Below the pieces are notes generated by a model that was not told where the DNA came from, searched no databases, and saw nothing but the letters and a program-made list of their open reading frames with translations. Shown here piece by piece: positions 8,933 through 28,487 of a stretch of DNA of 64,000 nucleotides (its first letter is position 1; every line of letters starts with the position of its first letter). Made by a program: the position numbers and the translations under genes. This DNA is from Acidobacteriota bacterium (GTDB taxonomy: Bacteria > Acidobacteriota > Thermoanaerobaculia > Multivoradales > JAGPDF01), in assembly GCA_039933785.1 (NCBI GenBank), contig JBDTNL010000007.1, positions 5,466 to 69,465 on the forward strand, read 5' to 3'.

Positions 8933-9793
8933 TTACCACCCGATCGGGTGCCAGGTGGTCTTGATCTCCAGCGTCGGCCGGATCCAGTCGAGGCCCTGTG
9001 CTTCGGCGGCGGTGTAGTCGGCTACCGCGTAGCGCCGGCTGCGCTTGACGTTGACTGCCGCGTCTTGGAGCGCCGCGATCTCGAGCTCTGCAGGTAGTCC
9101 GGCGAGTGCCAGCGCGTTCACGTCCATGTGGCGCGCGAGCTGCGGGACGAGTTCGTCCTTGTGTCCCGACACGAGGTTCACCACGCCGGCAGGGAGATCC
9201 GAGGTGGCGAGAATCTCTCCGAGCTCGAGACCCGGGATTGGGTGGGCTTGAGAGAGCAGAGCGACGACCGTATTGCCGGAGACGATCGCTGGCGCGAGGT
9301 GCGACACCAGGCCGAGTAGCTCGGGAGTCTCGGGCGCGACGAGGCCGACCACGCCGGTGGGCTCGGGGGCGGAGAAGTTGAAGTACGGAGCGGCGACGGG
9401 GTTCACCGTCGAGAGCAGCGCCTGGTATTTATCGGCCCAACCGGCGTAGTGCACCAACCGGTCGATGCTGGCGCGAACTTCGGCGCGCGCTGCCGCCGGC
9501 GTGGTCTTTTTCGTCGCGCGCAGCAGAGCGATGAAGTCTTCCTGACGGCTTTCGAGCATTTCGGCCATGCGATAGAGGATCTGGCCACGCAGGTACGCCG
9601 TCTTACTCGCCCATCCCGGTTGCGCCTCGCGCGCCTTGCGGACGGCGTCGCGGATGTCCTTGCGCGAGCCGCGCGAGACGTTGGCGAAGAAGGCACCCTT
9701 GGCGTCGGCCAGGGGGTCGTAGCGACCGGATTCGCTGCGCACGAACTCGCCGCCGAGGTAGAGCTTGTAGGTCTTGCGAACGGGCAGGTTCAT
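8933..9793 (-). CDS. Truncated aldehyde-dehydrogenase-like protein (N-terminal NAD-binding half only; lacks catalytic Cys/Glu region)
   Basis: 286 aa from MNLPVRKTYKLYLGGEFV (cat at 9791-9793); aligns to ALDH N-terminal/cofactor domain (GNTVVAL, GVVNLVSG) but ends about 200 aa short of a full ALDH; ATGA overlap with upstream ALDH stop. Confidence 0.65.
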   Translation of the reverse strand: MNLPVRKTYKLYLGGEFVRSESGRYDPLADAKGAFFANVSRGSRKDIRDAVRKAREAQPGWASKTAYLRGQILYRMAEMLESRQEDFIALLRATKKTTPAAARAEVRASIDRLVHYAGWADKYQALLSTVNPVAAPYFNFSAPEPTGVVGLVAPETPELLGLVSHLAPAIVSGNTVVALLSQAHPIPGLELGEILATSDLPAGVVNLVSGHKDELVPQLARHMDVNALALAGLPAELEIAALQDAAVNVKRSRRYAVADYTAAEAQGLDWIRPTLEIKTTWHPIGW

Positions 9794-11301
9794 CCGACCA
9801 TCTCCAGGTACGCCTCGAGCCCGTGCGCTCCGCCCTCGCGGCCGAATCCCGACTCCTTGTAGCCGCCAAACGGTGAGGTGGGATCGAACTTGTTGAACGT
9901 GTTGGCCCACACCACTCCGGCACGGAGCCGCCGGGTGAGCGCGAAGATCTTGGCGCCCTTGTCGGTCCATACGCCCGCCGACAACCCATAGGCGAGATTG
10001 TTGGCTTTCTCGAGCGCCTCGTCGGGGGTGCGGAAGGTCATCACCGCGAGTACGGGACCGAAGATCTCCTCGCGCGCGATGCGGTGCGATTGCGCCACAC
10101 CGGTGAACCAGGTTGGCGGGAAGAAGTAGCCCTTCTTGGGGAGAGGGCACGCGCTCTGGTGAAGCTCCGCGCCCTCTTCCACTCCGCAGGCCACCAACTC
10201 GCGGATCTTGTCCAACTGTTGCTTGGAGTTGATCGCGCCGACGTCGGTGTTCTTGTCCAGGGGATTTCCCACCCGAAGCGTTTCGATACGGTGCGCGAGC
10301 TTCTGGAGCAGCGTGTCGGCGACCGACTCCTCGACCAAGAGGCGCGAACCGGCGCAGCACACGTGGCCTTGATTGAAATAGATGCCGTTGATGATGCCCT
10401 CGACCGCCTGATCGAGCGCCGCATCCTCGAACACGATGTTCGCGGCCTTGCCGCCGAGCTCGAGCGTGAGTCGCTTGCCGCTCGCGGCGGTCGCGCGTTG
10501 GATGAGCTTGCCGACGTCGGTCGAGCCGGTGAAGGCGATCTTGCGCACTCGCGGGTGGTTGACGATGTGGGCGCCAGTTTCGCCGGCTCCCGGCACGATG
10601 TTGACGACTCCGGGAGGCAAGTCGGCTTCCTGCAGGATCTTGGCGAGGTGCATGGCGGTGAGCGGGGTGGTTTCGGCCGGCTTCAGCACCACGGTGTTGC
10701 CGCAGGCGAGCGCCGGCGCGATCTTCCACGCCGCCATCAGGAGCGGAAAATTCCACGGGATGATCTGCCCGCAAACCCCGATCGGCGCCGCCGACTTACC
10801 GGGAAACGCATACTCGAGCTTGTCGGCCCAGCCGGCGTAGTAGAAGAAATGCGCCGCCGCGAGCGGCACGTCGACGTCACGCGACTCCTTGATCGGCTTG
10901 CCGCCGTCGAGAGTCTCGAGAATGGCGAACTCGCGGGCCCGCTCTTGCAGCAATCGAGCGATGCGGTAGATGTACTTGCCACGCTCCGCCGGCTTCATCT
11001 TCGACCACACCTTGCGATAGGCCGTTTCAGCGGCGAGGACCGCCGCATCGACGTCGGCCTCTCCGGCCTCCGCGACCTCCGCGAGGGTCTCTTCTGTCGC
11101 CGGATTGACGGTCTCGAACCACTTCTTCGACTTGGGCGCCACGAATTGGCCATTGATGAACAGGCCGTAGCGCTTGTCGATCCGCACGTGGTCGGTCGAT
11201 TCCGGGGAGGGTGCGTATTCCCAGGCCGAGCCGAACTCGAGCACCGGGCGCTCGGTGGCGAATTTGCTGGGGGACGAGGAGGGGTCCAGGGTGGTGCTCA
11301 T
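9790..11301 (-). CDS. Aldehyde dehydrogenase (NAD(P)+) family protein, full length
   Basis: Start MSTTLDPSS preceded by GGAGG RBS; ALDH motifs IPWNFPL, GNTVVLKPAE, ELGGK, catalytic HVCCAGSR, C-terminal EIFGPV; 503 aa. Confidence 0.88.
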   Translation of the reverse strand: MSTTLDPSSSPSKFATERPVLEFGSAWEYAPSPESTDHVRIDKRYGLFINGQFVAPKSKKWFETVNPATEETLAEVAEAGEADVDAAVLAAETAYRKVWSKMKPAERGKYIYRIARLLQERAREFAILETLDGGKPIKESRDVDVPLAAAHFFYYAGWADKLEYAFPGKSAAPIGVCGQIIPWNFPLLMAAWKIAPALACGNTVVLKPAETTPLTAMHLAKILQEADLPPGVVNIVPGAGETGAHIVNHPRVRKIAFTGSTDVGKLIQRATAASGKRLTLELGGKAANIVFEDAALDQAVEGIINGIYFNQGHVCCAGSRLLVEESVADTLLQKLAHRIETLRVGNPLDKNTDVGAINSKQQLDKIRELVACGVEEGAELHQSACPLPKKGYFFPPTWFTGVAQSHRIAREEIFGPVLAVMTFRTPDEALEKANNLAYGLSAGVWTDKGAKIFALTRRLRAGVVWANTFNKFDPTSPFGGYKESGFGREGGAHGLEAYLEMVG

Positions 11302-11802
11302 GAGGGGGCCTCCGAAACCTGGAGTATCGCATGGCACCTCACCGGCACCTCTCGGGTGCCTGGCTGCTCCGCGATCTAGAAGAAAGAGAACCCGGAATGC
11401 GTCTTATGGTGCTGGGAGGAGACTCATGCGCATGGAATCGCCAGGGGTATCGAAGACTTGGATCGAGCGCTGGAGCGAAGAGCTCGGCGCTGCCGTCCGG
11501 AGATTGGAGGCAATGCCGGAGCGGCTGCCGGAGCTCGTTGTCCTGGAGACGACGCCGGCCGGACGACGGCTGACGGCTCGCGAGACCGGGAGTCGCCGAT
11601 GGCGGTCTCCTGCTCGACTGCGCTGGCCCTCGGATTGAGGTCGCTTCGCGCGACGTCGGGCTCAGGGCCCCGATTCAGGCGTCTTGCCGCGTGACTGGAT
11701 CGAGCGCAGCGTCTCTCGAAGAACGGGGAGCATGGCGCGATCCTTGGGTCGATCGGCGAATTCCTTGGCCTCGATGATCGCCGGCCAAGGATCTCTAGCA
11801 GC

Positions 11803-12003
11803 TCAGCCGCGTTGAGTGGAGGCGTAGGCACCGCGCAGCTCGAGGATTCCCGCGCCAAAGACCCTGAGTCGTTCTAGACGCTCGTCGACCGTCATCGCCA
11901 GCGCCACCAGGATCAGGGAGCGGTCCACGCCCTCGGGGGTGTAGCAGTGTTCGAGCACGTAGGCGTCGTCATACTCGGGGTCGCGGACTTCGCTTTCGAT
12001 CAC
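11803..12003 (-). CDS. Hypothetical small protein (66 aa), GTG start
   Basis: Moderate GC3 bias; no recognisable family; lies in 790-bp gap between ALDH operon and patatin gene. Confidence 0.3.
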   Translation of the reverse strand: MIESEVRDPEYDDAYVLEHCYTPEGVDRSLILVALAMTVDERLERLRVFGAGILELRGAYASTQRG

Positions 12004-12089
12004 TTAGACATTGTAGTCCTCGCGGGAGCATCCCGACGAACTGAAGAGTAGTCTCAGCCTCAGCATCAAGAAGGCCAGGAGGTTTTCCG

Positions 12090-14132
12090 ATGTTGGCATG
12101 GGTGCAACGGCTGTGGCGCTCCTGTAGGGGCATGGGGCGCGTGCTCGGGCTCTGTCGATTCGCGTTGGCGACGCTGCTCCTAGTTGGCTTCGCGATGATC
12201 GGCGTCCCCCAGGGCCAGGACCTCCTGCGGTTCGTGAACGAATCGCTGGGCGGCGACTACGCGACCATGCAGCCGGCGATTTGGTTTCTGCTGGCGCTTT
12301 GGATCTGGGCCACCTCTGCTTGGTATTTCTCGCGCTTCATTTTGGCGGTGCTGTTGCGCCCGCACCTGCCGGCCCAGAAATGGTTCGTGCTCTGGCTACC
12401 TAGGGGCATTGGTGCGGCCTGCTTTCTGGCCCTGACGGTAGGTTTGCTGCGGGTCGAGGCATGGGGTCTTGCGGCGATCGCCGGAAGCGGAGCGGTCGCC
12501 TTCGTCGTCTTCGCGGTCTGGGGCGGCGCCTGGATGCGCCGGGTCGGCGCGGTACCCACCGAGGAGCATTCGGGCCTTGGCGTGCGTGCCCAGCCCAAGG
12601 CGGCGCGCGGGTTGGCGTTTCTGTTCGCGCTCCTTGCCGCGGCGCTCTTCGTGGCCTTCGCGGTGTCGCGCGTCGACTTGCCGCAGAGATTGGGGTCGGC
12701 GGCGATCGTGATGCTCGCAGCCTCGACCTGGATCCCGTTCGGGACGCTCCTGGTCTATTTCGGCCACCGCCTGCGGCTGCCTCTGCTCACTCTGTTCTTC
12801 GCCGCCGTAGCGGTCTTCAGCTTCTGGAACGACAATCACGCGCTGCGCTTGGCTCCCGCCAGCCCGCTCCCTCCCTCGACCGAGAGTTTGCGCGACAACC
12901 TGGGCCGTTGGGTCGCCGAACGGGAGGTGCCAGGCGATTCGTTAGCGCCGATTCCGCTGGTTCTCGTAGTCGCCGAAGGTGGCGGCGCCCGGGCCGCGTA
13001 CTGGACCGCGCACGTGCTCGCGACACTGGAAGAGCACGCTCCGGGATTCTCGCGCCGGGTGTATGCGATCAGCGGTGTCTCCGGCGGCGCCGTGGGCGCG
13101 ACGATGTTCGCCGCCCTGATGGCGGAACCCACTAGCTGGCCGGCGGATCTCGCCCCCTCGGCGTGCCACGCTCATGACGGTCGGGTTGGGCTGGGCGAGG
13201 CCGCGCGCTGCCTCGCCGGCGGCGACTTCCTGTCGCCGCCGCTCGCGGGCATGCTCTACGCGGACTTGATGGCCCACATGTCTCCTTGGCAGATTCCAGC
13301 CTTCGACCGCGCGCGGTCGCTCGAAAGCGCGTGGGAGGAGTCCTGGAATCGGGAAGTCCAGCCGCGAAACGGTCCGAGCTCGGACCGCCTGGCCGCTCCG
13401 TTCCTCTCGCTCTGGTCGGGACCCAGAACGCCAGCGGTGCCAAATCTGATTCTGGATGGCACTTGGGTCGAAACCGGCCAGCGCGCGATCACGACCAACC
13501 TGCGTCTGAGGCCCTCTCCCTTCGGCGGCGCGCTCGATGTTCTCGAGCTCATGAACAGCGACGTGCCGCTCTCCACCGCGGCCCACAGTGCCGCCCGGTT
13601 TCCTCTCGTCAGTCCCGCCGGTCGCGTCGATCACGCGGGTAAGACACTCGGCCACGTGGTCGATGGGGGGTACTTCGAGAATGCGGGAGCCACCGCGGCG
13701 CTCGAAGTGCTCGACAGCGCGATCTGGCTTCGCGACCTGCATCATCTACCGCTGCGGCTGATCGTGATCGCGATCAGCAACGACCCCGCTGTCCTGCCGC
13801 CGCCCAATTCCCAGTGCGCCGAGCCCGTCGTCGGGCTGGGCCCACCGCTGCGCGGCATGGAAGCCTTGGCGCCGGTGTCGGCTGTGCTCAACGCGCGCGA
13901 AGCGCGCAGCCAGTTCGCCTTGCGGGCTCTTCGCGACTACACGCTCGGCGATCGCGATCGTGACCACGACACGTGGTATTTCCGATTTGGGCTACGCCAG
14001 TCGGGTCCGGAGCCCCTCGGGTGGCAGCTTTCGCGGACTTCTCAGAAGGTCATTGCCGATCAACTCGAGGATCCCGCCGTGCCATTTTGCAACCGCCAAC
14101 GGTTAGAGGATGTGGTCGCGCTACTTCGCTGA
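12090..14132 (+). CDS. Membrane-anchored patatin-like phospholipase (N-terminal multi-TM domain plus C-terminal PNPLA domain)
   Basis: AGGAGG RBS 7 nt before ATG 12090; about 250-aa N-terminal region with about 6-7 hydrophobic helices; patatin motifs EGGGARAAYW (GGxR oxyanion), GVSGG (GxSxG nucleophile), VVDGGYFENAG (catalytic Asp DGG). Confidence 0.78.
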   Translation: MLAWVQRLWRSCRGMGRVLGLCRFALATLLLVGFAMIGVPQGQDLLRFVNESLGGDYATMQPAIWFLLALWIWATSAWYFSRFILAVLLRPHLPAQKWFVLWLPRGIGAACFLALTVGLLRVEAWGLAAIAGSGAVAFVVFAVWGGAWMRRVGAVPTEEHSGLGVRAQPKAARGLAFLFALLAAALFVAFAVSRVDLPQRLGSAAIVMLAASTWIPFGTLLVYFGHRLRLPLLTLFFAAVAVFSFWNDNHALRLAPASPLPPSTESLRDNLGRWVAEREVPGDSLAPIPLVLVVAEGGGARAAYWTAHVLATLEEHAPGFSRRVYAISGVSGGAVGATMFAALMAEPTSWPADLAPSACHAHDGRVGLGEAARCLAGGDFLSPPLAGMLYADLMAHMSPWQIPAFDRARSLESAWEESWNREVQPRNGPSSDRLAAPFLSLWSGPRTPAVPNLILDGTWVETGQRAITTNLRLRPSPFGGALDVLELMNSDVPLSTAAHSAARFPLVSPAGRVDHAGKTLGHVVDGGYFENAGATAALEVLDSAIWLRDLHHLPLRLIVIAISNDPAVLPPPNSQCAEPVVGLGPPLRGMEALAPVSAVLNAREARSQFALRALRDYTLGDRDRDHDTWYFRFGLRQSGPEPLGWQLSRTSQKVIADQLEDPAVPFCNRQRLEDVVALLR

Positions 14133-14135
14133 GCT

Positions 14136-14696
14136 CTACCGGAGTGGTTTCTCGGCGTGCTTGAGGACCTGGATCCGATCCGCCAGCACCAGGTAGCGAG
14201 TTTCGATCGCGACGGCGTTCTCGCCGGTAGCGAGCACGGCGCGAATCTGGATTTGGTTGCCGACGCGGTCCAGGCTCAGGCTTCGCCAGGAGGGGCCGTG
14301 CGCAGCTGGATCCGCGAATGCACCGCAGAGCGCGTCGAGTTTTCCGGCGGCGGCATCCGTGGCGTTAGCGGCAGAGAAATCAATCGGCGGCACGCCATCA
14401 CGAAACCACGTTCGCACCAGATCCACCTGCCCGGGCGAACACTGGCTGGCGAAGCCCAGCGCCGTCGACAGCGCGCAGCGCAGCGGGCCTTCGCTCGAGG
14501 CCCTCGCGCAGCCCGTCGAGCCGCGCATGGCATACAACGCGAGGATGGCTCGGAGCGCCTCCGGCATTGGCTGAATTGAACCGAGCCGAACGCTGGGCGA
14601 CGCCTTGACGTCGAAGATCGTCGACGCCTCTACCGCCGCAGCGCCCAGGGCCAGCAGCGAGACGACGAGCGCGCCGAAGCGAGAGGCCGGAGGCAT
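14136..14696 (-). CDS. Hypothetical secreted protein with signal peptide and several Cys
   Basis: 186 aa, N-term MPPASRFGALVVSLLALGAAAVEA; convergent with patatin gene (3-bp gap). Confidence 0.55.
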   Translation of the reverse strand: MPPASRFGALVVSLLALGAAAVEASTIFDVKASPSVRLGSIQPMPEALRAILALYAMRGSTGCARASSEGPLRCALSTALGFASQCSPGQVDLVRTWFRDGVPPIDFSAANATDAAAGKLDALCGAFADPAAHGPSWRSLSLDRVGNQIQIRAVLATGENAVAIETRYLVLADRIQVLKHAEKPLR

Positions 14697-24656: not shown

Positions 24657-25868
24657 ATGCTCGAGTCAATGCCTCGGATCGGCTGGGCCGTGGGCCTTGT
24701 GCTGATGGCGATTCCGGTTGGCGCGGCTGCCGAAGAGGTCAGCCTGGCGTCCTACGGCGATGGCGCCACGTTGGTGCAGAAAGCCGACGAATACGGCGGC
24801 GGCTGGACGGGGGAATGGCTGCTCGACGAACGCCCACAATCCGGTTGGGCGTCTCCGGAGAAGCGGCTCGGCCCGCACGTGTTCGTGATTGCGCTGCCCG
24901 AGAAGAGCGCCGTGTCGCGACTCGAGTTCGACACCCAGAGCATCGACGGTGACGGTCGCGGCGCGAAGAACGTGCGGCTCGAGATCTCGGACACTAGCGC
25001 GTCGACGGGATTCGTACCGCTCGCCAGCGTGACGCTCCAGGACCGCGCCGATCGGCAATCCTTCCCGGTCGCCGCCACAGCCGCGGGTCGCTTCTTACGA
25101 CTTACCGTGCTCGACAATCATGGCGCGGCGGACTACACCGAGCTGATGGATGTGCGCGCCTATGGCAGACAGCTCACAAACTCCCCCATGGCCGATGTCA
25201 GCGGCACGTACGAGACCAACTTCAACGATTTTCATGTGCTCCAGCAGAGCACATCCTTGGTGGGGTGTTACGAATACAAGGAAGGCGTTCTCGTCGGCGG
25301 GCTCGAAGGACACGTGATGAAGCTCACTTGGCGGGAGGGTCCGGACCATGGCCCCGCATTGATGGTGTTCTCTCCCGACGGTAAGGAGTTCACCGGCTTC
25401 TGGGGCCGGGGCGAGGATGGCGTGTTCTCCGGCGGGCGCTGGGACGGCAAGAAGAAGAGCTCCGTGGTCGGTACTTGCCCGCACTGGAAGGGTGACGCCC
25501 AGACCCAGCTTCAGCACGATCTCGCGACCGAGGGCCACGTGCGTTTCTACGGCATCAATTTCGATTCCGATTCGGGAGTGATTCGCGACGAGTCCAAGCC
25601 GGCGCTCGATCGTCTGGCGGCCGTGCTGAAGGCGCATTTGGATTGGAAACTCACCGTCGAAGGGCATACCGACAGCCTGGCGGGCGCGGCGCACAACCAG
25701 ACCTTGTCGCAGGCACGCGCTGACGCCGTCAAGGCGTACCTGACCCGCGCGGGAATCGAGGCGGGACGCCTGCGGACGGTGGGCCTCGGTGCCACCAAGC
25801 CGGTCGCGAGCAACGACAGCGCCGCCGGCCGGGCCGAGAACCGTCGGGTCGAGCTGGTCAGGAACTGA
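24657..25868 (+). CDS. OmpA-family protein: signal peptide, discoidin (F5/8 type C)-like domain, C-terminal OmpA peptidoglycan-binding domain
   Basis: GAGGAG RBS; signal MPRIGWAVGLVLMAIPVGAAA; C-term VEGHTDSLAGAAHNQTLSQARADAV...NRRVELV. Confidence 0.75.
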   Translation: MLESMPRIGWAVGLVLMAIPVGAAAEEVSLASYGDGATLVQKADEYGGGWTGEWLLDERPQSGWASPEKRLGPHVFVIALPEKSAVSRLEFDTQSIDGDGRGAKNVRLEISDTSASTGFVPLASVTLQDRADRQSFPVAATAAGRFLRLTVLDNHGAADYTELMDVRAYGRQLTNSPMADVSGTYETNFNDFHVLQQSTSLVGCYEYKEGVLVGGLEGHVMKLTWREGPDHGPALMVFSPDGKEFTGFWGRGEDGVFSGGRWDGKKKSSVVGTCPHWKGDAQTQLQHDLATEGHVRFYGINFDSDSGVIRDESKPALDRLAAVLKAHLDWKLTVEGHTDSLAGAAHNQTLSQARADAVKAYLTRAGIEAGRLRTVGLGATKPVASNDSAAGRAENRRVELVRN

Positions 25869-25893
25869 GCCTCTCGTCCTCGAGCCAGCGGCC

Positions 25894-27249
25894 ATGACGT
25901 GGGCGTATCGCCTGGTGCGCGCGTTGGCGCGCGTTATTGCGGGCCTCTTCTATCGCGATCTCGGGTTGATCGGCGGCGAGCACTTTCCGGCGAGTGGGCC
26001 GGTGATCGTGGCCGCCAATCACCAGAACGCGCTAGTCGATCCCATGCTGATGGTCGCGGCCTTGCCGCGGGCGCTCCGGCCGCTCGCCAAGGCGCCCTTG
26101 TTCAAGCACCCGTTGATTCGCCCGTTCCTCTCCGCGGTTGGCGCGCTGCCCGTTCACCGCACCAAGGAATCGAGCGGCGATCCAAAACGCAACGACGCCA
26201 TGTTTCAGGCCGCCGCCAACGCCCTGCAGCGCGGCGAGGCGCTGCTCATCTTTCCCGAAGGCGTCGGCCACTTCGAGCCCATGCTGCAGCCGTTGCGAAC
26301 CGGCGCGGCGCGAATGCTGCTCAGTGCCGAAGCCCAGGGTGCGCCGCCGGTCACCTTGCTACCCGTCGGACTGGTCTTCCGCAAGCCCGGGCGATTTCGC
26401 GCCGGCGCCGGCGCCGTGCTGGTGGGCGAAGCGATCGAAACGCGCGACTGCGTCGTGCTGTTCGCCACCCAACCCGAAGCCGCCGTGCGCACCCTGACTA
26501 CCCGGCTGGAGGAAGGTCTGCGCCACCAAATCATCGAGGCCGACACTTGGCGGACCGAGCATCTCCTGCGGGTTGCCGAAGAAGTCTGGCGAGAAGAGCA
26601 TGGAACTGAGACCGCCGATGCGCCGCGCGACCCACTGGAGCGCACGCGCTGGCTGGGCCGCATCGCCCGCGGCTACCGCTTTCTGCTCTCGCGCGAGCCT
26701 GAACGCTTGCGCCGGCTGCGGCGCGGTCTCGAGGCGTATTCGGAAGTACTCGAACGCGCTGGCCTGCGCGGCCGCCATCTCGGGCAGTCGTATTCTTTCG
26801 CGGGAGTCGCGCGCTTCACCGTACGCGAGGGGCTCTTGCTTCTGATCACGCTCCCGTTGGCGGCCCTCGGAGTGATCCTGCACGGAACCGCGTTCTGGGC
26901 GACCGACACCGCGGTTCGTCTGGCGAATCCGAGCCCGGACACCGAGGCGACGTACAAGATTTTCGGCGGCCTGCTCTTCTACCCGCTGACTTGGGCGGTC
27001 GAGGCGTGGCTGGCATGGAACGTGGGTGGGCCGTGGGCACTTGCTGCCTTCATCGGTCTACTTATGCCCTGTGGCTTCTTCGCGCTCGGCTGGCGCGAGC
27101 GCGTCTCGCGCGGCGCGCGGGAGGCGCGCGGGCTCTATCGCTTCTTGCGGCATCCGGACCTACTCGCTCACCTCGCTCGCCGCCGCGAAGAGCTCGCGAC
27201 CGAGCTCGCTGCTCTGGCCGCCACGGTGCCCCCGGAGGTTCTCGAATGA
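25894..27249 (+). CDS. Lysophospholipid acyltransferase (PlsC/LPLAT family) with C-terminal membrane domain
   Basis: HX4D motif AANHQNALVDP, FPEG motif; start MTWAYRL (ATG 25894). Confidence 0.75.
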   Translation: MTWAYRLVRALARVIAGLFYRDLGLIGGEHFPASGPVIVAANHQNALVDPMLMVAALPRALRPLAKAPLFKHPLIRPFLSAVGALPVHRTKESSGDPKRNDAMFQAAANALQRGEALLIFPEGVGHFEPMLQPLRTGAARMLLSAEAQGAPPVTLLPVGLVFRKPGRFRAGAGAVLVGEAIETRDCVVLFATQPEAAVRTLTTRLEEGLRHQIIEADTWRTEHLLRVAEEVWREEHGTETADAPRDPLERTRWLGRIARGYRFLLSREPERLRRLRRGLEAYSEVLERAGLRGRHLGQSYSFAGVARFTVREGLLLLITLPLAALGVILHGTAFWATDTAVRLANPSPDTEATYKIFGGLLFYPLTWAVEAWLAWNVGGPWALAAFIGLLMPCGFFALGWRERVSRGAREARGLYRFLRHPDLLAHLARRREELATELAALAATVPPEVLE

Positions 27250-28487
27250 GGCGAATTCGCTCGGCTCCGGTGGCGCTGTCGCTGCTGAGCGGCCTCAACG
27301 TTTTGAACTATCTCGACCGCTACGTCGGGGCCGCGGTCTTGCCCCTCATGCTGGCGGCGTTCTCGCTCACCGACGCCCAGGGCGGCATGCTGCAATCGGC
27401 GTTCATCGTCGTCTATTCGCTCATGTCGCCCGTCGCGGGCTGGTTCGGGGACCGCCGCGCTCGACTCCCGCTCGCGGCGCTCGGCGTGCTGATCTGGAGC
27501 TTTGCGACGCTTGGCACCGCGGCGGCGCCGACCTTCGCGTTGCTCCTCTGCGCCCGCGCTCTGATCGGTGTCGGTGAAGCGAGCTACGGCGTGATCACGC
27601 CGGCCCTGGTGTCCGACTACTACCCGGCCGAACGTCGGGCGCGCGCCCTGGCGATTTTCTACGCCGCGATTCCTGTCGGTACGGCGCTCGGCTACGTGGT
27701 GGGCGGCTCCGTAGGTACCCATTGGGGATGGCGCCAGGCCTTCCTGGTCGCGGGCTTGCCCGGTGCGCTGCTCGGATTGTCGCTGCTGCTCCTCGAAGAG
27801 CCGCCGCGCGGGGGCAGCGATCGCGCCGTTCACGGCGCAGCGGCGGAGCCGGTGGGCCCGGGTCTGCGCGATACCTGGCGGGCCTTGAGCTCGCGCCGGA
27901 GCTATCTCTTCAACACGATGGCTCAGATGCTGTACACCTTCGCGATGGGTGGCCTCGCCACCTGGATGCCCACTTACTTCGTGCGTGTGCGGGGTCTGCC
28001 TCTCGAAACGGCGACCACCCGCTTCGGGCTCGCGCTGGTGCTGGCGGGGTTCGGCGGAACGCTGCTCGGCGGCTACCTGGCCGACAAGCTTCACCACCGC
28101 ATCCGCGCCGCGACCTTCATGATTTCCGGCCTTGGGCTGATCTTCTCGCTCGCCTTCACTTGCCTCGCGGTGCTCCACCCGGTGCCGTGGGTCTACTGGA
28201 CGGGCATGTTCGTCACGCTGCTGTTGCTCTTCCTGAACATCGGGCCGCTGAACGCAGCGCTTGCCAACGTCCTACCGGCCGGCCTGCGGGCCCGCGGCTT
28301 TGCCGTGACCACCATGCTCATGCATCTGTTCGGTGATGCCGCGTCGCCTTGGCTGATCGGGGTCGCGTCCGATCGCATCGGCTTGACCTTGCCGATTCTG
28401 GTGTGCGGAGTGCTGCTGGCGCTTGCCGGAGTCCTGCTGCTCGTCGGCCGGGGGGCGCTCGAACGCGACCTCGCCATTGCTGGATAG
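27246..28487 (+). CDS. MFS transporter, lysophospholipid transporter LplT-like (by context)
   Basis: ATGA overlap with acyltransferase; 12-TM MFS with LDRYVGAAVLP N-terminal motif. Confidence 0.7.
   Translation: MRRIRSAPVALSLLSGLNVLNYLDRYVGAAVLPLMLAAFSLTDAQGGMLQSAFIVVYSLMSPVAGWFGDRRARLPLAALGVLIWSFATLGTAAAPTFALLLCARALIGVGEASYGVITPALVSDYYPAERRARALAIFYAAIPVGTALGYVVGGSVGTHWGWRQAFLVAGLPGALLGLSLLLLEEPPRGGSDRAVHGAAAEPVGPGLRDTWRALSSRRSYLFNTMAQMLYTFAMGGLATWMPTYFVRVRGLPLETATTRFGLALVLAGFGGTLLGGYLADKLHHRIRAATFMISGLGLIFSLAFTCLAVLHPVPWVYWTGMFVTLLLLFLNIGPLNAALANVLPAGLRARGFAVTTMLMHLFGDAASPWLIGVASDRIGLTLPILVCGVLLALAGVLLLVGRGALERDLAIAG

Follow-up and report, generated by a model that had tools for sequence, protein, structure and literature searches.

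A putative periplasm-facing patatin-type lipase with a seven-helix membrane domain in an Acidobacteriota bacterium

The controlled breakdown and remodelling of bacterial membrane lipids are poorly understood, and few inner-membrane lipases that face the periplasm are known, PlaF of Pseudomonas aeruginosa being the main example. PlaF is an inner-membrane phospholipase A1 with an N-terminal anchor and a periplasmic catalytic domain, and it acts on the glycerophospholipids of its own membrane (PMC9132575). PlpD of the same species is an Omp85-patatin, a membrane-bound lipase that faces the periplasm (PMC11116518). Here we describe a 680-aa patatin-like protein, hereafter the lipase, that is encoded in a 64,000-nt stretch of Acidobacteriota DNA, the whole of which is called the window. 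PlaF is the best functional analogue of this protein, as both combine an N-terminal anchor in the inner membrane with a periplasmic catalytic domain, features that are predicted in the case of the lipase. However, the two are unrelated in sequence; one membrane helix anchors PlaF, whose fold is that of an alpha/beta-hydrolase, whereas the lipase combines a patatin fold with seven helices that carry conserved polar residues. PlpD is held in the outer membrane by a C-terminal POTRA domain and 16-strand barrel, in contrast to the N-terminal helical bundle of the lipase, which is predicted to lie in the inner membrane. Unlike the polytopic lipase, CapV and CapE are soluble and about 300-350 aa long; cyclic nucleotides activate them, and their genes lie beside that of a CD-NTase. 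No CD-NTase or other cyclic-nucleotide synthase was found beside the lipase gene in the window or among 129 ORFs flanking its homologues. In Lnt and other polytopic periplasmic lipid transferases, a multi-helix lipid-handling membrane domain is topped by a periplasmic catalytic domain; the catalytic domain of Lnt, though, is nitrilase-like and uses a Cys nucleophile, so that folds and chemistry are unlike those of the lipase and there is no homology. Eukaryotic patatins of the PNPLA6/NTE type are membrane-anchored by a single N-terminal helix and have cyclic-nucleotide-binding domains and a cytosolic catalytic domain. They share with the lipase a patatin domain on an integral membrane protein, but the membrane domains are unrelated. 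On the best reading of these comparisons, the lipase would resemble PlaF or Lnt in its design and not a CBASS-type effector.

The lipase ORF starts with ATG (Table 1), and scans for promoters and terminators around the gene gave nothing above chance. Its product is 100% identical to the NCBI entry 'MAG: patatin-like phospholipase family protein [Acidobacteriota bacterium]' and has more than 300 full-length homologues. Patatin (PF01734) is the sole Pfam match (aa 294-538; 35.4 bits against a cut-off of 27.7), with no match to POTRA, barrel or alpha/beta-hydrolase families; about half of the homologues score under the PF01734 threshold and carry no Pfam label. The GGGxR, GVSGG and DGG motifs are all invariant in a family alignment of 54 homologues, and together with the Pfam score this upholds the view in the preliminary description that the patatin apparatus is intact. 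The Ser-Asp dyad S331/D525 is present, in keeping with the G-x-S-x-G and D-G-[GA] signature of the patatin superfamily, and the protein has the patatin alpha/beta fold. Among solved folds the closest is plant patatin (1oxw), and later matches include the CBASS effectors CapE and CapV. The last 117 aa form a small alpha/beta extension.

Table 1. Features of the lipase locus, in coordinates of the window.
Feature	Position	Strand	Basis or remark
Segment of 2.8 kb replaced by 290 bp of unrelated sequence in a related genome	11332..14150		blastn of locus L090 vs window
Shine-Dalgarno-like AGGAGG	12077..12082	+	7 nt 5' of ATG; read from sequence
Lipase gene, 680-aa membrane-integral patatin-like protein	12090..14132	+	ORF list; stop codon included
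Amphipathic Arg-rich N-terminal helix, aa 2-21, predicted on cytoplasmic face	12093..12152	+	AlphaFold helix 2-21
Seven-helix membrane domain, aa 23-246, family-invariant Q41, R105, G108, P231	12156..12827	+	
W-N-D-N-H motif, aa 246-250, outer end of last membrane helix	12825..12839	+	Two alignments
Patatin catalytic domain, aa 294-538	12969..13703	+	Pfam Patatin PF01734 match
Oxyanion-hole motif G297-G-G-A-R301	12978..12992	+	G297, G298, G299, R301 invariant (54-sequence family alignment)
Nucleophile elbow G329-V-S331-G-G333, catalytic serine 331	13074..13088	+	S331, G332, G333 invariant (54 sequences)
Loop between C359 and C374, predicted disulfide	13164..13211	+	Cysteine co-occurrence
Catalytic aspartate motif D525-G-G527	13662..13670	+	D525, G527 invariant (54 sequences)
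C-terminal alpha/beta extension, aa 564-680, invariant P642-L-G-W645	13779..14129	+	Alignment and AlphaFold model
Convergent 186-aa predicted secreted protein, 4 cysteines	14136..14696	-	ORF list

Kyte-Doolittle hydropathy and the AlphaFold model place about seven membrane helices within aa 23-246, and the fusion to a polytopic membrane domain proposed earlier also stands. The model of the whole 680-aa protein is confident (pLDDT 90.4, pTM 0.91), and this pTM suggests that the membrane bundle and the catalytic domain are held in a fixed arrangement. The last membrane helix is short, at about 15-16 residues, and in the motif at its outer end N247, D248, N249 and H250 are invariant in the family alignments. 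The seven-helix domain has no Pfam match and no relative among solved structures. From its sequence, the lipase is a patatin-type enzyme fused to a predicted seven-helix membrane domain without an earlier description. The membrane domain stands N-terminal of the patatin domain in the best 150 of the 2,950 clusters returned by a profile search. Versions lacking the membrane domain but having a signal peptide were also sought; all five short matches that were read are fragments of the full architecture, still with the last helices and WNDNH. The preliminary description had called the design unusual. That holds when the lipase is set beside characterised bacterial patatins (CapV/CapE, ExoU, VipD, PlpD), none of which is alike, but the architecture itself is common: clustering at 50% identity gives 2,950 clusters, and the genomes of at least 556 species encode it. 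About half of the family members are annotated only as hypothetical proteins, and the family is not described in the full-text literature that we searched for polytopic or periplasmic inner-membrane bacterial patatins, nor in that searched for patatin together with defence islands.

We then asked what the surroundings of the gene might reveal. Recurrent neighbour partners, a possibility raised in the preliminary description, were not seen: no neighbour cluster occurs at more than 11 of 89 lipase loci, and the 133 Pfam families matched by the 129 flanking ORFs each occur beside no more than three members. Synteny is lineage-specific only (8 annotated contigs, 89 clustered loci and 129 flanking ORFs scanned), and the three closest homologues occupy three different gene contexts. 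Envelope lipoproteins and a DUF900 hydrolase adjoin the Verrucomicrobiota loci, and FtsX-like, ABC and GDSL-lipase genes adjoin some of those in Proteobacteria; such neighbours offer no shared functional clue. In the window the neighbours are aldehyde dehydrogenases, RNase G and a Kdo-type kinase. The window does encode the PlsC/LplT-like pair to which the lipase had been linked (25789-28487), but 12 kb with unrelated housekeeping genes separates the two; the pair does not recur beside homologues, and the link finds no support. The convergent 186-aa ORF, also reported earlier, is borne out by the ORF list, and 3 bp (14133-14135) separate it from the lipase ORF. Its product begins with a signal-peptide-like N-terminus, MPPASRFGALVVSLLALGAAAVEA/S, as read from the sequence, and is a near-orphan with one homologue (53% identical) among 5.8 billion proteins. 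As a partner of the lipase it was ruled out, because that sole homologue belongs to a genome with the same flanking genes and no lipase, and because the 186-aa protein is missing at the 88 other loci that have a lipase homologue. On the best reading of these gene orders, the lipase would work alone and not as part of a multi-gene system.

The gene shows presence/absence polymorphism. In a related genome without the lipase, RNase G and aldehyde dehydrogenase still flank the site, with protein identities of 89% and 90%; what is replaced there is the lipase gene together with 750 bp upstream of it and the 3' end of the convergent ORF. The existence of so close a relative with the same flanking genes marks the lipase gene as accessory. 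The segment has no meaningful flanking repeats and no composition anomaly that would mark it as a mobile element. No phage copies of the lipase were found, and the plasmid-borne homologues are distant relatives only. Homologues occur in cultured bacteria as well, among them Massilia frigida CCM 8695 (locus L085, 5773-8082), Azospirillum lipoferum 4B with plasmid AZO_p2 and a Nostoc with plasmid pNPM2. An interrupted 113-aa ORF upstream of the gene has no Pfam match and no plasmid match.

The explanation that we favour, to which we give an even chance, is that this accessory gene codes for a serine acyl hydrolase of patatin fold that is integral to the inner membrane, acts alone, faces the periplasm and remodels or scavenges envelope lipids. 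The seven-helix bundle would anchor the enzyme with its N-terminus in the cytoplasm and its catalytic domain on the periplasmic face, where one or two predicted disulfides would stabilise it, and bundle and catalytic domain would form a single rigid unit. At the outer-leaflet boundary this bundle has invariant polar residues, Q41 and the W-N-D-N-H motif, and most likely it binds a membrane lipid or presents it to the Ser331/Asp525 dyad. The substrate would be an envelope lipid, namely a phospholipid or lysophospholipid of the inner membrane's outer leaflet, and by cleaving one of its acyl esters the enzyme would remodel or scavenge such lipids. The gene would be gained and lost between close relatives. 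A lipid is the presumed substrate, and hydrolysis over acyl transfer is a tentative choice. Enzymes of patatin fold can be transacylases too, which makes hydrolysis by the lipase a putative activity. An unlikely alternative of the same topology is a periplasmic transacylase, in which Ser331 would take up an acyl chain from a membrane phospholipid and hand it on to a second envelope component, be it a lipid, a lipoprotein or a polysaccharide, as with Lnt or PagP where activated acyl donors are absent. A polytopic lipid-binding domain with a periplasmic catalytic domain does resemble the periplasmic lipid transferases Lnt, EptA and LtaS, some enzymes of patatin fold are known transacylases, and the invariant WNDNH and Q41 at the outer membrane boundary could hold an acceptor. 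However, no conserved acceptor-related gene lies nearby (89 loci, 129 flanking ORFs), and the sequence does not separate transfer from hydrolysis.

Both readings place the catalytic domain outside the cytoplasm, and two features of the family bear on this orientation. In a positive-inside analysis, in which K+R were averaged per loop segment across the family, the N-terminal segment has a mean of 4.9 (net charge +2.8) and loops 2, 4 and 6 have means of 2.3, 4.4 and 1.65; the alternate loops have 2.1 (net charge -1.1), 0.28 and 0.57. This distribution points to an N-in, C-out protein of seven helices. One subfamily, judged by eye, apparently has four extra N-terminal helices; as the number is even, its in/out parity would stay the same. 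Of 222 members, 187 have an even number of cysteines in the part after the membrane domain, as do 91 of 107 representatives at most 50% identical (binomial p 6e-14), statistics that, like the loop charges, depend partly on phylogeny. The count in the membrane part is near 50:50 (101 even, 121 odd), as are the counts of the control residues W, H, M, Y and F. Furthermore, two pairs of cysteines co-occur in the catalytic part. C359 and C374 are both present in 94 of the 222 members and both missing in 95 (Fisher p 7e-31), and the two closest relatives retain both. C576 and C667, in the C-terminal extension, would form the second disulfide of this lineage, and other members have a pair at q636 and q667 instead. 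Together, the loop charges and the even, paired cysteines indicate a periplasmic, disulfide-bonded catalytic domain; we infer with some firmness that this domain most likely faces the periplasm. Such a topology, a point that the preliminary description did not take up, changes what 'membrane lipid turnover' would mean. The reverse orientation, with the lipase as a housekeeping phospholipase or lysophospholipase acting from the cytoplasm on the inner leaflet, seems improbable to us. The shortness of the last hydrophobic helix would suit it, most characterised bacterial patatins act in the cytoplasm of their own cell or of a host, and the orientation is drawn from sequence statistics and not from coordinates. 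Yet the charge bias is consistent across all seven loops, the last helix is essentially uncharged family-wide, the even-cysteine bias and the paired cysteines are confined to the catalytic part, and the gene is accessory and not core.

It is quite doubtful that the lipase is a single-gene defence or suicide effector or toxin, whose membrane domain would sense a perturbation of the envelope (e.g. phage entry) and free the enzyme to destroy the membrane, although its distribution is patchy and accessory with insertion or deletion between close relatives, one homologue lies amid toxin-antitoxin and type I restriction-modification genes, a distant plasmid homologue adjoins a large SIR2-family gene, and CapE and CapV are among the nearest solved folds after 1oxw. 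The lipase has no match in PADLOC-DB 2.0 at E up to 1 and reaches 10 of the 200 bits that the NCBIfam equivalog model CBASS_lipase requires. The 129 flanking ORFs show no enrichment, their PADLOC matches being three generic protein kinases only, the context is housekeeping in this window and in Massilia frigida, and no phage copy and no conserved immunity gene nearby was found. The membrane-disrupting effector of the preliminary description, taken as a defence effector, gains no support, with no cyclic-nucleotide or other sensor partner and with mixed neighbourhoods, and the lipase seems not to represent a new defence system.

The family is large and spans many phyla, and in it a catalytic fold that is well understood is joined to a membrane domain without described relatives. 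We can tentatively imagine, at somewhat short of an even chance, that many phyla of soil and sediment have a large class of envelope enzymes that has been overlooked, in which a seven-helix fold not described before extracts lipids from the outer leaflet of the inner membrane or presents them to a periplasmic patatin domain stabilised by disulfides. Such enzymes would be patatin-based counterparts of Lnt or PlaF that remodel lipids independently of ATP or possibly transfer acyl groups to an envelope acceptor. If the periplasmic topology and the lipid substrate are true, the family would constitute a new enzyme class in the envelope lipid homeostasis of Acidobacteriota, Verrucomicrobiota and Proteobacteria, and thousands of genes would gain a better annotation.

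By all of the sequence and fold criteria that were tested, the 680-aa product of the lipase gene belongs to the patatin superfamily. The Pfam search (PF01734) suggested in the preliminary description returned a match at aa 294-538 with 35.4 bits (cut-off 27.7), and the three catalytic motifs (G297-G-G-A-R301, G329-V-S331-G-G333 and D525-G-G527) are invariant in an alignment of 54 sequences in which the homologues are 32-69% identical. The assigned start is sound, because an AGGAGG lies 7 nt before the ATG (12090) and the homologues align from residue 1. Hydropathy analysis placed about seven hydrophobic stretches within aa 20-246. The open reading frame, the intact patatin motifs, the N-terminal membrane helices and the 3-bp convergence with the neighbouring gene, all read earlier from the sequence alone, were confirmed.

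Features in the window discussed in the text
Feature	Position	Strand	Description
Lipase gene	12090-14132	+	680-aa ORF
Convergent gene	14136-14696	-	186-aa ORF, 3-bp gap to lipase gene
Interrupted frame	11640-12003	-	113-aa product, in the 750-bp region upstream of the lipase gene
Aldehyde dehydrogenase	9790-11337	-	full-length, 515 aa
ORF directly after aldehyde dehydrogenase	8933-9793	-	~286 aa
PlsC-type acyltransferase	25789-27249	+	ORF
MFS transporter	26991-28487	+	ORF overlapping the end of the PlsC-type ORF

An identical protein from an Acidobacteriota metagenome-assembled genome is already in NCBI as 'patatin-like phospholipase family protein', and more than 300 full-length homologues (~700 aa, 95-100% of the query covered) were found. 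The family is under-annotated, since about half of these homologues fail the Pfam patatin threshold, carry no Pfam label and are named only as hypothetical; the copy of Massilia frigida (locus L085, 5773-8082) is one such protein. Relatives are encoded in at least 556 species genomes of the Verrucomicrobiota, Acidobacteriota, Burkholderiales, Gammaproteobacteria, Desulfobacterota, Planctomycetota, Nitrospira and Gemmatimonadales, M. frigida being a cultured isolate among them, and distant relatives of the same architecture occur on plasmids of Nostoc, Azospirillum, Rhizobium and Acaryochloris; a search for relatives in phages found none. When a profile of the membrane domain alone (aa 23-246) was run against 1.84 billion representatives, it matched 2,950 clusters with E no higher than 1e-3, and 580 with E no higher than 1e-30, and in the best 150 of the 2,950 the domain is N-terminal in proteins of 650-880 aa. 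Five shorter homologues that we examined are truncated fragments that still hold the last helices and the junction motif (W-N-D-N-H, aa 246-250). Residues kept across the family are Q41, R105, G108 and P231 in the membrane domain, N247-D-N-H250 immediately after its last helix and P642-L-G-W645 close to the C-terminus. Judged from these comparisons, the joining of a patatin to a polytopic membrane domain is uncharacterised, yet not rare. Among cultured carriers, a single defence-like pairing was seen: on the Azospirillum lipoferum 4B plasmid AZO_p2 (locus L092, 1-6377), a very large SIR2-family gene immediately precedes that of an 824-aa distant member, whose junction motif is altered to GHDHHE.

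To orient the protein in the membrane, the family alignment was cut at the modelled helices and Lys+Arg were averaged per segment. The means are 4.9 for the N-terminus and 2.3, 4.4 and 1.65 for loops 2, 4 and 6, with several further Lys/Arg at the adjoining helix ends; loops 1, 3 and 5 average 2.1 (net charge -1.1), 0.28 and 0.57. Read by the positive-inside rule, this distribution gives an N-in, C-out protein with seven spans, and therefore the patatin domain would be periplasmic. Extracytoplasmic domains with disulfide bonds are marked by cysteines that are paired and even in number. Of 222 full-length members, 187 have an even number of cysteines after the membrane domain, as do 91 of 107 representatives no more than 50% identical (binomial p 6e-14); the counts in the membrane part (even in 101 members, odd in 121) and those of W, H, M, Y and F, taken as controls, lie close to 50:50. 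The cysteines at query positions 359 and 374 are present or absent together (Fisher p 7e-31), as are those at 636 and 667 (p 5e-26), both values being inflated by shared ancestry; C359, C374, C576 and C667 are kept in the query and its two closest relatives. From charge and cysteine statistics, with the shortness of the last membrane helix as a caveat, the patatin domain is probably periplasmic. A subfamily of ~870-940 aa (P0063, P0066, P0175, P0220, P0254) carries ~170 additional N-terminal residues that gave no match in a Pfam search and appear by eye to make up four additional membrane helices plus a loop that holds two cysteines; provided that this is what they form, the same topology parity is suggested.

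The best-supported reading is that of a stand-alone patatin acyl hydrolase, its activity putative, integral to the inner membrane and facing the periplasm. The seven-helix domain would anchor the enzyme and probably present an envelope lipid to the Ser331/Asp525 dyad. In overall design the lipase recalls polytopic periplasmic lipid transferases such as Lnt, and a periplasmic transacylase is conceivable though unlikely. Closest in working principle is PlaF, a phospholipase A1 that remodels membrane lipids; it is anchored by a single helix and its catalytic domain is in the periplasm (PMC9132575). There is a likeness to PlpD too, although its periplasmic patatin domain is tethered to the outer membrane (PMC11116518). 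The protein belongs to none of the CapV/CapE, PlpD or PlaF families; for CapV/CapE, the score with the CBASS lipase model was 10 bits (cut-off 200). The architecture is unusual among characterised patatins, as the preliminary description held; a PlsC/LplT link, an effector role and a partnership with the 186-aa protein are wrong or unsupported.

The neighbours in the window are housekeeping genes: two for aldehyde dehydrogenases and those for an M20 peptidase, RNase G and a Kdo/WaaP-type kinase, with RodA, PBP2, SurA and RlmL farther off. A housekeeping lipase facing the cytoplasm, at odds with the charge and cysteine patterns, is improbable. The ORF that follows the full-length aldehyde dehydrogenase matches positions 1-214 of 461 only in the aldehyde dehydrogenase profile, and may be either a paralogue of half the length or a truncated copy. 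The pair noted earlier as resembling lysophospholipid repair genes, a PlsC-type acyltransferase and an MFS transporter, is present at 25789-28487, but 12 kb away, and its link to the lipase is unsupported. Neighbours differ between eight annotated contigs; when every ORF within 5 kb was clustered at 89 loci, no cluster occurred in more than 11 loci, and recurrent clusters were each limited to single lineages. The 129 largest flanking ORFs at 74 loci gave 133 Pfam families, none in more than 3 members, and their only PADLOC matches were three generic protein kinases; no cyclic-nucleotide synthase and no enrichment of defence genes emerged among them. A single-gene defence or suicide effector is decidedly doubtful: the lipase itself has no PADLOC match and fails the CBASS model.

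The lipase gene of Verrucomicrobiota comes after a local cluster of genes for predicted envelope proteins, whose signals and lipoboxes were read from the sequences. A conserved gene pair encodes a 147-aa protein whose N-terminus is lipoprotein-like and a helical protein of 112 aa; it lies upstream in eight loci (L007, L008, L009, L010, L017, L019, L026, L047), but in L043 downstream. A DUF900 alpha/beta hydrolase, likewise lipoprotein-like at its N-terminus, is frequent, and a 660-aa protein with a signal-like N-terminus occurs in three loci (L010, L017, L047). This cluster fits an envelope role of the lipase, but is lineage-specific. In one proteobacterial lineage (L005, L006, L011, L014, L053), an FtsX-like permease (832 aa), an ABC ATPase and a GDSL-type lipase lie downstream, a neighbourhood that we take to resemble the E. 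coli ybbP-ybbA-tesA locus. In two of these loci (L005 2478-2762, L006 1528-1812), the lipase gene is preceded at 20 bp by what appears to be the remainder of a gene, a 94-aa fragment similar to the N-terminal end of a Tle1-like (DUF2235) phospholipase.

Among 5.8 billion proteins, only one homologue of the 186-aa protein was found (53% identity); its gene lies between those for RNase G and aldehyde dehydrogenase, whose products are 89% and 90% identical to their counterparts in the window. In that related genome (L090) no lipase gene lies between the two, so the 186-aa protein is a lineage-specific neighbour and not a partner. In L090, 290 bp stand in place of window positions 11332-14150 (2.8 kb); close relatives therefore differ in whether they have the lipase gene and its 750-bp upstream region. 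The nearest homologues of the lipase (68% and 62% identity) lie in other gene contexts, and neither flanking repeats nor a composition anomaly was found around the 2.8-kb segment. The 113-aa frame upstream, with a single stop between MTVDERLERLRVFGAGILELRGA and IIEAKEFADRPKDRAMLPVLRETL, had no Pfam or plasmid match and may be a decayed small gene that arrived together with the lipase gene. What is new here is the size of the family and a membrane domain without a described relative, together with the probable periplasmic orientation of the lipase and the accessory nature of its gene.
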